DNA from: Escherichia coli
GTDB lineage: Bacteria; Pseudomonadota; Gammaproteobacteria; Enterobacterales; Enterobacteriaceae
DNA: 2,353 nucleotides
Strand: one strand, 5' to 3'
Assembly (NCBI RefSeq): GCF_024298765.1
Contig: NZ_CP101219.1
Numbering within the stretch: position 1 is the first letter of the stretch; each line of letters starts with the position of its first letter. Under the pieces are notes generated by a model. That model saw nothing but the letters and a program-made list of their open reading frames with translations, was not told the DNA's origin and did no database searches. Position numbers and translations under genes: made by a program. Shown here in pieces: positions 1 through 2,353 of this stretch.

Positions 1-120
1 TGTCAGTCCTTCGTTCTTCGCTCGCCGTCTGATTTCGCTTGCGAGTCTGTTATTTACTCTAAGGGTGATAACCTTAGTTCTCTGCCGTACTTCTGAACCA
101 CTACGTTTATTTTTAGCCAT
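1..120 (-). CDS. N-terminal segment of an RHH-domain protein, candidate MbeC/MobC-like mobilisation accessory protein. Start codon at 120-118; the frame runs off the window start.
   Basis: Minus-strand translation from ATG(120-118) gives MAKNKRSGSEVRQRTKVITLRVNNRLASEIRRRAKNEGLT, with no stop before position 1. KVITLRV followed by NNRLASEIRRRAKNEG is the beta-strand plus first helix of a ribbon-helix-helix fold. A GGAGAG Shine-Dalgarno (plus-strand ctctcc, 129-134) sits 8 nt upstream of the ATG. Not in the ORF track because it is truncated at the window edge. Confidence 0.6.
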   Translation of the reverse strand, partial: MAKNKRSGSEVRQRTKVITLRVNNRLASEIRRRAKNEGLT

Positions 121-140
121 CGCAATGACTCTCCATTTTG

Positions 141-240
141 CACGTTTGGGGTGTCGGGGCTTGCCCTGACAGGAGGTATTCTCATGCAAGCGAATGTATT
201 CGCGGTATGACGAATACACATCCTGTCCCATTTTCCGCTA
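141..240. other. Candidate origin of transfer (oriT/bom-like) of the ColE1/MOBP5(HEN) type, upstream of the RHH gene start.
   Basis: GGGGTGTCGGGGC at 148-160 matches, from my recollection, the GGGTGTCGGGGC motif next to the bom/nic region of pBR322 and pUC backbones. It is followed by a GGGCttGCCC hairpin and nested inverted repeats GCGAATgtATTCGC (189-202) and GTATTCG-N9-CGAATAC (195-217). Its position just upstream of an MbeC-like gene matches ColE1-type MOB module layout. The nick site cannot be located by eye. Confidence 0.35.
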
Positions 241-597: not shown

Positions 598-1200
598 CCT
601 CGCAATGGGAGCATTAATCACCGTACAGTGCTCCGCCAGATGCTGGCGGCCTCAAATCCACCAAGCCGCCACGGTTCCGGCAGCGCCTTGAGCGCAACCG
701 GAAACCGACTGGGGAGAACCCCAGACCCCCACCGCTGCAACATCATCGGTCTGCGACCACCTACCAACCGAGTGGCTGCCTGTACCGTGCAAACGGGCTT
801 TGCAGGGGGCTGGCGCGGTTCCTGGCGACCTGAAAGCCCCTGGTTAGGGGTATCGGCGCGCCTGGCTTCCTGAAACCCTCTGTAAGCGTTTTTCGCGCCT
901 TCCATGCCCTGACGGGCATTTAGACCCCGTTTTGTGCGTTTGGGAAGTTCTGAGCGCGTTTAACAGATGGCCAGCGACTCGATCGCCTAGAATCAAATCG
1001 GGATCATCAACGATATGCGAGAGGTGGCACCGCTCGCCGCAGCCCCAGCGACCGAGCCGCCAGGCTCGCGAGTGGGCGAGGAAGCGGAAGGGAATCTGAT
1101 TCAACATAGTGCACTTACGCACAGAATTTGGCCTACGCGCCCGCGTCCGTGCACACGTTTAATAAGAATTAAGAAGGGAAATCGCGATAAACCGCGCCAA
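598..1200. other. GC-rich island with no credible coding frame; candidate structured noncoding RNA or cis-acting DNA element, function unknown.
   Basis: Abrupt change from AT-rich flanks to G/C-majority sequence. The four ORFs in the track here (63-95 aa) overlap on both strands and are Arg/Trp/Gly/Pro-rich, as expected for chance frames in GC-rich DNA. Hairpins: CCGCCAG-atg-CTGGCGG (633-649); nested CGGTTCCGG...GCGC-cttga-GCGC...CCGGAAACCG (672-707); CCCCT-ggtt-AGGGG (837-850); ATGCCC-tgac-GGGCAT (904-919). Palindromes: GGCGCGCC (855-862), CTCGCGAG (about 1064-1071), GTGCAC at 1110-1115 and 1149-1154. Confidence 0.4.
821..880 (+). repeat. Imperfect 20-bp direct repeat CCTGGCnnCCTGAAAnCC (821-840 and 861-880) flanking a hairpin and the GGCGCGCC palindrome.
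   Basis: cctggcgacctgaaagcccc versus cctggcttcctgaaaccctc, 16 of 20 identical, start-to-start spacing 40 bp. A third CTGGCG copy lies at 810-815. Confidence 0.5.
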
Positions 1201-2047: not shown

Positions 2048-2353
2048 TTAGCTAAATGTGTTTGAGCCAGGATATTTATTTTTATGATGCCGTTTTATTA
2101 TTTTTATTTCCTGTTTTAATAAATCCATTTGATTATATATATCAGAAATTCGCTTCGTTACTATTTTCATTTCATCGCAAAGTAAAATTATTTTATGCAT
2201 CACCTCGAGGTACTCTTTATCCTTCGGCCGCTTTCCCTTATCAAATAATTTCTTCTGCATCCGACCAAGTCGGATTAATTCATATAAATACCTGGAAGGT
2301 ACGCGCTGTTTTATTTCATTATTTAAACTTGCCGTCCTGATATATTCTGAAAT
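2048..2353 (-). CDS. C-terminal segment of the same RHH protein if the molecule is circular. The frame is open from the window end (2353) to the TAA stop at 2050-2048.
   Basis: The reverse complement of 2261-2353 translates without a stop as ISEYIRTASLNNEIKQRVPSRYLYELIRLGR and continues into the 70-aa ORF listed at 2048..2260. Codon boundaries land exactly on 2353 and on position 1, so ...EGLT (ending at position 1) joins ISEYIRTASL (starting at 2353) in frame. This completes the second RHH helix (GLT-ISEYIR). Combined protein is 141 aa. Confidence 0.5.
   Translation of the reverse strand: MSEYIRTASLNNEIKQRVPSRYLYELIRLGRMQKKLFDKGKRPKDKEYLEVMHKIILLCDEMKIVTKRISDIYNQMDLLKQEIKIIKRHHKNKYPGSNTFS

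Follow-up and report, generated by a model that had tools for sequence, protein, structure and literature searches.

The window, by which the whole 2353-bp stretch of Escherichia coli DNA analysed here is meant, behaves as a complete small circular plasmid. It carries a gene for a ribbon-helix-helix (RHH) protein of 141 aa on the minus strand, identified below as a homologue of nikA, which begins at an ATG at 120-118, encodes the RHH N-terminus in codons 1-40 (1..120), runs in frame from base 1 over the circle junction and continues with codons 41-141 and a stop codon at 2050-2048 (2048..2353). The initial annotation had inferred a circle of 2353 bp, and this is supported because full-length homologues of 141 aa on closed plasmids of 2.3-2.5 kb run through the junction, with 96.5% identity across it. 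Matches to the whole window at 92-93% identity are likewise closed E. coli plasmids, of 2.3-2.6 kb, and the nearest relative, NZ_CP172225 (2354 bp, strain GF4, chicken meat), is 99.8% identical over the module of nikA and the candidate oriT. Besides the RHH gene, the sole other sizeable ORF with a family match is rep (1435-1968), which encodes a 177-aa RepL-family replication protein (Pfam RepL, 1.5e-9). The rep and nikA genes converge, and no toxin ORF lies 3' of nikA. The plasmid had been described as lacking a relaxase, and this was borne out: the ORF list and family matches gave no relaxase ORF in the window, and no remnant of IncK2 NikB or ColE1 MbeA was detected when both were compared with the doubled window by tblastn (best E = 3.5).

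Upstream of the rep start at 1435 there are two near-identical palindromic units, GGTATCAG-N5-TGATACC, at 1333-1352 and 1400-1419, with further related copies near 1235 and 1267. They probably serve as iterons or as operators for Rep. A hairpin at 1981-2016, ACCCGCCAA(N18)TTGGCGGGT, occupies the gap between the convergent rep and nikA genes; it has A and T runs on its flanks and is likely to be a bidirectional terminator. Scanning the entire window against Rfam with E values up to 1 returned just two sub-threshold sRNA matches, both over this terminator hairpin and one of them to P9. When positions 1-620 were scanned for sigma-70 promoters and terminators, none was found in the oriT or the leader; the single site in this region was at 430-403, and shuffled sequences gave more.

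A GC-rich (61%) non-coding block is located at about 660-1125, the rest of the plasmid having a GC content of 34%. Its identity to the 1.5-kb pKL1/Col(MG828) plasmids is 83-87%, and 883 PLSDB records contain it, in company with unrelated Rep proteins. It folds as ssDNA with a z-score of about -2.5 on both strands, gave no match in the whole-window Rfam scan, and may be a shared host-dependent replication or priming cassette. A second oriT in this block was considered and rejected, as no nick motif was found and as the shared piece in pIGWZ12-like plasmids lies downstream of mobC, not between mobQ and mobC. The part in question is window 1030-1122, which is 82-90% identical to the stretch just downstream of mobC in 4072-bp MOBQ plasmids (L018, 3957-4047), a size that we take to be that of pIGWZ12.

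The RHH gene is preceded by a Shine-Dalgarno-like sequence, GGAGAG (129..134, minus strand), read from the sequence 8 nt upstream of its ATG. An upstream in-frame ATG at 231 (231-121, minus strand) would lengthen the ORF to 178 aa and take it across the oriT, and public annotations include cases where a gene caller has chosen a longer start, giving products of 172-206 aa. Homology to NikA and the position of GGAGAG favour the ATG at 120 over that at 231.

The 141-aa protein (NikA-141) matches the Pfam NikA-like family PF21983 at 2.1e-15, passing the threshold of the family profile, and scores 96.1 bits against a curated cut-off of 80 for the NCBIfam model NF041264, 'plasmid mobilization protein MobA'; its RefSeq annotation is 'MobA' only. 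At the sequence level, its residues 6-51 match residues 6-51 of the solved RHH domain of R64 NikA(1-51) (PDB 2ba3_A, E 1.4e-6). Identity to R64 NikA is 50% over 98 aa (E 2e-29), that to the IncK2 NikA is 43% and that to the pCERC7/NTP16-type NikA is 42%. A central region, LGRMQK-LF-GKR-DKEY-EV, lies outside the RHH domain and is kept in all NikA lineages, and the beta-strand region of the RHH domain varies among lineages in step with repeat A of the oriT. Near the C-terminus, residues of about 104-136 (2048-2150, minus strand) form an insertion of ~33 aa (…KIVTKRISDIYNQMDLLKQEIKIIKRHHKNKYP…) that is missing from the R64, I-gamma, K2 and pCERC7-type NikAs, and it is because of this insertion that the protein has 141 aa compared with the 110 aa of R64 NikA. 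A word-indexed search for homologues of NikA-141 found only its own family, on contigs of up to 8.7 kb; conjugative lineages came no nearer than about 50%. The protein had been called MbeC-like in the initial annotation, a label that does not survive comparison: ColE1 MbeC has no detectable similarity to it by BLASTP (E = 23), and a Pfam scan of NikA-141 gave no match to MobC. Judged from its sequence, the protein is a homologue of NikA, a relaxosome accessory protein, and not of MbeC or MobC.

The nikA gene lies directly downstream of the candidate oriT (148..229) and reads away from it from the ATG at 120 on the minus strand, which is the layout seen in R64, pN441 and pDV45; the plus strand of the oriT is predicted to be the one that is nicked and transferred. 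This segment can be aligned, with no large gaps, to the oriTs that precede nikA in R64, pN441, R805a, pDV45 and pLH50-c-A, and the order of its elements, its location upstream of nikA and its orientation match those of I-complex oriTs. On sequence grounds, 148-229 is an oriT of the R64/I-complex type (IncI1, I-gamma, K, B/O and Z; MOBP). An alignment to curated oriTs of MOBP5/HEN plasmids had been suggested previously; the segment does align to an oriT family, namely that of R64 and the I-complex and not MOBP5/HEN. The earlier description of a MOB module with an RHH accessory protein and no relaxase is therefore correct in outline and was assigned to the wrong family, as both the protein and the DNA are of the NikA/I-complex type rather than the ColE1/MbeC (MOBP5/HEN) type.

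The oriT begins with an 8-bp inverted repeat element (148..170; GGGGT-GTCGGGGC-TT-GCCCTGAC), which includes the motif flagged previously as bom-like, GGGGTGTCGGGGC, present on the plus strand at 148-160. The arms of this repeat, GTCGGGGC (153-160) and GCCCTGAC (163-170), read from the sequence, are complementary at 7/8 positions, and the other nested inverted repeats that had been claimed are also present, at 195-202/211-218 (8/8 complementary) and 168-177/218-227 (9/10). A long imperfect inverted repeat pairs a left arm on the plus strand (168..187), equivalent to repeat B, with 201-227, in repeat A and the nick block, and gives an ssDNA hairpin of 168-227. The predicted ssDNA fold of the plus strand over 145-235 is a long imperfect hairpin of -17.8 kcal/mol (z = -3.8), equalled by none of 200 shuffles (0/200).

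Twelve of the 13 bases of the bom-like motif (GGGTGTCGGGGC) occur once in ColE1, within bom (L005 1510-1521, minus strand), with 0.04 occurrences expected by chance, and the likeness continues into GCCCTGAC, such that both origins have GGGTGTCGGGGC-N2/3-GCCCTGAC at their far end. The same GGGTGTCGGGGC is invariant in every I-complex oriT examined, and the bom-like match was seen because the 8-bp inverted repeat is common to the ColE1 bom and the I-complex oriTs. Beyond this repeat the two differ. The nick-bearing portion of bom falls opposite repeat A in the alignment and shows no relation to it, bom has no equivalent of repeat A, and the ColE1 nick sequence, TATACTGG|CTTAAC, is absent from the window, the best match (2061-2074, minus strand) having 3 mismatches and being no better than chance. 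The initial annotation placed the oriT of ColE1-family plasmids next to mbeC, which is only approximately true, as in ColE1 rop lies between bom and mbeC.

The equivalent of repeat A, CGCGGTATGACGAATAC (201..217, plus strand), sits where R64 has its 17-bp repeat A (GACGGTATTACAATTGC) and is identical to it at 11/17 positions; no conjugative plasmid was found to have this version, which differs from R64 at 6/17. Across the five lineages aligned, there is no indel from the repeat-A columns to the nick block. This repeat is the predicted binding site of the plasmid's own NikA. Compared with any conjugative plasmid, the left arm of the oriT shows only 70-77% identity, and in PLSDB no more than about 41 records have an oriT that matches that of the window at 80% or above, a number that fits the NikA-141 family and two cointegrates. 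The nick block, CACATCCTGTCCC (217..229, plus strand), has one exact match in the window (0.01 expected by chance) and is identical over 13 nt in R64 (IncI1), pN441, R805a and pLH50-c-A, I-gamma and R805a-type oriTs included. The nic site presumably lies between G225 and T226 on the plus strand, where we place it from the R64 literature and the MOBP consensus YATCCTG|Y. Repeat A reportedly lies at a fixed 8 bp from the nick site, and the inverted repeats are said to serve termination.

The 82 bp of 148-229 are the best conserved of the plasmid. The oriT is 95% identical in relatives that match the window at only 72-77% of nikA nucleotides and 70% of the 27-bp leader, and it is 98-100% identical in closer ones. 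Among 5,426 complete E. coli genomes, 45 had the module, in every case on a plasmid; most of these came from poultry. MOB-suite typed 37 of the 39 PLSDB relatives as non-mobilizable, which is most likely a consequence of the identity thresholds of the program. A single strain can hold two or three different members of the nikA-oriT family (NZ_CP172224/5/6 in GF4; L001 and L013 in STEC2018-607; NZ_CP120561/2 in B771). The rep regions of these co-resident plasmids are very divergent and their oriTs are nearly identical, and thus the mobilisation module appears to have been shuffled among compatible RepL replicons.

Two of the 39 PLSDB records of the NikA-141 lineage are cointegrates at the oriT of a helper. 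In each of the IncK2 conjugative plasmids pTMSA992 and p5312.29, a family member of 2.3 kb sits between yggA and nikA, at the IncK2 oriT, and these insertions were checked by PCR and Sanger sequencing by the authors of the source study, using plasmids from transformants. The inserts come from two sublineages. Compared with the NikA of the window, theirs are 93.6% (pTMSA992) and 71.6% (p5312.29) identical, and the free plasmids p2.3k and pB771_2328 encode the same two proteins. The IncK2 plasmid pDV45 was used as the empty-site reference for both crossovers, and both were located inside the CACATCCTGTCC of the nick block that the partners share. One junction consists of the IncK2 left arm, CACATCCTGTCC and the right flank of the small plasmid, and the other of the left arm of the small plasmid, ACATCCTGTCC and the IncK2 right flank. 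In each hybrid oriT the NikA gene is still beside its own repeat A. The hybrid oriTs form direct repeats that flank the small plasmid (L007, 7002 and 9314; L008, 7893 and 10221), and the base 4 nt past the predicted nick is C, A or T among free and integrated copies. A review (PMC5714925, citing Furuya and Komano 2003) describes NikB as catalysing recombination between oriTs, a reaction that NikA stimulates. With two events only, short-homology recombination, and not a relaxase, could in principle be the origin of the cointegrates.

Members of the family also occur together with large plasmids of the I-complex. An R805a-type oriT was present on a large plasmid in 17 genomes, and five of these (LH10-b-1, LH50-c, GF60, GF124.3 and GF43) also carried a family member compared with 0.14 expected (Fisher p = 1.8e-7), an association confounded by the poultry origin of both plasmid types, with p values of 0.003-0.06 in assumed poultry-only universes. 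Strain SCU-125 has a K2/B-O-like nikAB plasmid and a family member; in strain GF4, no nikAB was found in the first 50 kb of pGF4-A (IncFII), pGF4-B and pGF4-D having been covered over their opening 300 bases.

Sequence membership, architecture, conservation, the cointegrate junctions and the co-residence signal are the observations on which we propose, with considerable confidence, that the plasmid has an I-complex-type oriT and a NikA-type accessory protein, and that it is mobilised by NikB acting in trans while its own NikA reads a private site. The plasmid's NikA would bind its own 17-bp equivalent of repeat A at 201-217 and recruit the NikB of a co-resident I-complex conjugative plasmid to the nick block at 217-229, which is identical to that of the helper. 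NikB would then nick the plus strand at about G225|T226, and the strand would leave 5' to 3' via the coupling protein and type IV secretion system of the helper, with nikA entering last. The 8-bp and the long inverted repeats would act in termination and recircularisation. The chemistry of NikB may also recombine the small oriT with the oriT of the helper, giving cointegrates that are carried in cis. The pattern observed is of a private NikA/repeat-A pair next to a nick block matched to those of I-complex plasmids; a private repeat A together with a co-varying RHH beta-strand region is expected of a NikA and repeat A that co-evolve, with the nick block kept for a shared relaxase. That a NikA of 43-50% identity can engage a heterologous NikB is part of what we infer. 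Conjugation of I-complex plasmids depends on nikAB, and complementation of nikB in trans is possible. A point against the proposal comes from pU302S, a related plasmid with nikA, for which PMC9282650 describes no mobilisation by IncP and only poor mobilisation by F. The initial annotation had anticipated a relaxase supplied in trans, which agrees with a transfer-origin module and RHH gene on a plasmid that encodes no relaxase, and a specificity factor encoded by the plasmid itself, which is plausible for a NikA with a private repeat A. Its choice of helper, a co-resident ColE1-like plasmid, is replaced here: the expected helper is a conjugative I-complex plasmid that would give both NikB and the mating apparatus. 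Most likely, therefore, the window plasmid spreads by borrowing the nicking enzyme of a co-resident large plasmid.

The window plasmid shares with R64 (IncI1) and the other I-complex plasmids (I-gamma, K1/K2, B/O and Z) the order and orientation of the oriT-nikA elements, the nick block over 13 nt and a NikA that is 43-50% identical, the RHH domain and the central conserved region included. Unlike these plasmids, it has no nikB and no transfer genes, and is a 2.35-kb RepL replicon. A closer parallel in strategy is the pCERC7/NTP16/pU302S group, described as small plasmids with an R64-like oriT, their own NikA and no NikB (Moran and Hall 2017, as cited in PMC9282650); the latter source also gives NTP16 as mobilised by R64. 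The relaxase is expected to act in trans in both cases, but the pCERC7/NTP16 group shares one identical NikA of 107 aa, its oriT arm is about 80% identical to that of the window and its repeat A is different. Its representative pMB3362_4 also has a Rop gene, which points to a ColE1-type RNA replicon, whereas the window plasmid has a RepL replicon.

Other small plasmids have the origin alone. pEC156, which has only an R64-type oriT, is mobilised by R64, and pBuzz is described as mobilised by a B/O plasmid through an I-complex-type oriT alone. These plasmids and pKL1 resemble the window plasmid in having an R64-like oriT and needing an I-complex helper, but have no NikA of their own, whereas the window family has both a NikA and its own site. 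The oriT of pKL1 (L017, NC_002145; 433-518, compared with window 148-235) directly abuts the GC-rich block with no nikA, and its repeat A and nick block are identical at 30/30 nt to those of conjugative plasmids of the R805a/pLH50-c-A type. pKL1 presumably uses the NikA of its helper, and this exact match probably explains why MOB-suite calls pKL1-type plasmids mobilizable. R64-like oriTs are a recognised cluster among the pOriT plasmids of E. coli. The strategy is thus already known, and the window represents a separate lineage within it, with a RepL replicon, a 141-aa NikA and a private repeat A. In a literature search of incomplete coverage, no paper was found that describes the NikA-141 plasmid family or interprets the IncK2 inserts.

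The cointegrates could also be read as evidence for conduction only, in which the module is a site of recombination for fusion with an I-complex plasmid and transfer takes place in cis, or, in a weaker form, in which host recombination acts at identities of 12-13 nt. The proportion of cointegrates at the helper oriT (2/39 lineage records) is in keeping with this, as are the directly repeated hybrid oriTs, where initiation at one and termination at the other could free either partner. We nevertheless consider conduction alone unlikely, as there would be little reason to keep a private NikA and repeat A were the nick block alone of importance, and as NTP16 and pEC156, relatives of the same class, are mobilised as free plasmids. 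Against the host-recombination form, both crossovers are in the nick block and none is in the equally long GGGGTGTCGGGGC identity, which from two events is a weak argument.

The fallback offered by the initial annotation was a CopG-like repressor with a relic motif. This explanation, widened here to an RHH protein that is either such a repressor or an orphan antitoxin, beside an oriT-like relic without function, draws on matches to CopG_antitoxin (9.7e-4), a RelB antitoxin model (1.1e-4) and aCcr1, and on the position of the gene beside its own presumed promoter region, which makes autoregulation plausible. These profile matches are weak and the NikA-specific models score far better, so that the best profile match is not to CopG-type repressors or antitoxins; furthermore, the central region conserved with the conjugative NikAs lies outside the RHH domain. 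There is no toxin partner downstream, rep being convergent and not downstream, and a relic would not be the plasmid's best-conserved 82 bp, nor would two cointegrations between oriTs have taken place there. This explanation is very improbable. Lastly, a ColE1-type bom with an MbeC-like accessory protein, nicked by the MbeA of a co-resident ColE1-family plasmid, has in its favour the 12-nt identity with bom that continues to GCCCTGAC, and the RHH accessory proteins of both systems, which are regarded as distantly related, but can be dismissed almost entirely, as the shared block is found equally in every I-complex oriT examined, and the MbeC similarity, the MobC match, the ColE1 nick sequence and any relation between the nick-bearing part of bom and repeat A are all absent.

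Returning to mobilisation by NikB in trans, we tentatively extend it to a reading that we hold as possible and somewhat short of even, in which the NikA-141 lineage is a portable specificity adaptor. It would combine a private NikA/repeat-A pair with a nick block universal to the I-complex, use NikB from several lineages and insert reversibly at the oriT of the helper, with the C-terminal insertion as an adaptation. If this is true, a 2.3-kb plasmid would be usable with NikB whatever the specificity of the helper's own NikA, the ~33-aa insertion would serve in recruitment of heterologous NikB or in competition with the helper NikA, and the tandem hybrid oriTs could alter the transfer of the helper itself.

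The NikA-141 family is mostly from poultry, the niche also of its partners in co-residence and fusion, the IncK2 and related resistance plasmids. It offers a compact natural system in which to study how the specificity of an oriT is set by an accessory protein when the relaxase is shared, and the cointegrates reveal one way in which a small plasmid can become part of the oriT of a resistance plasmid. The family also exposes a blind spot in mobility typing, where oriTs that are 70-80% identical to the references are missed and their carriers are called non-mobilizable. The main value of the finding lies in these natural cointegrates and in the exposure of this blind spot.
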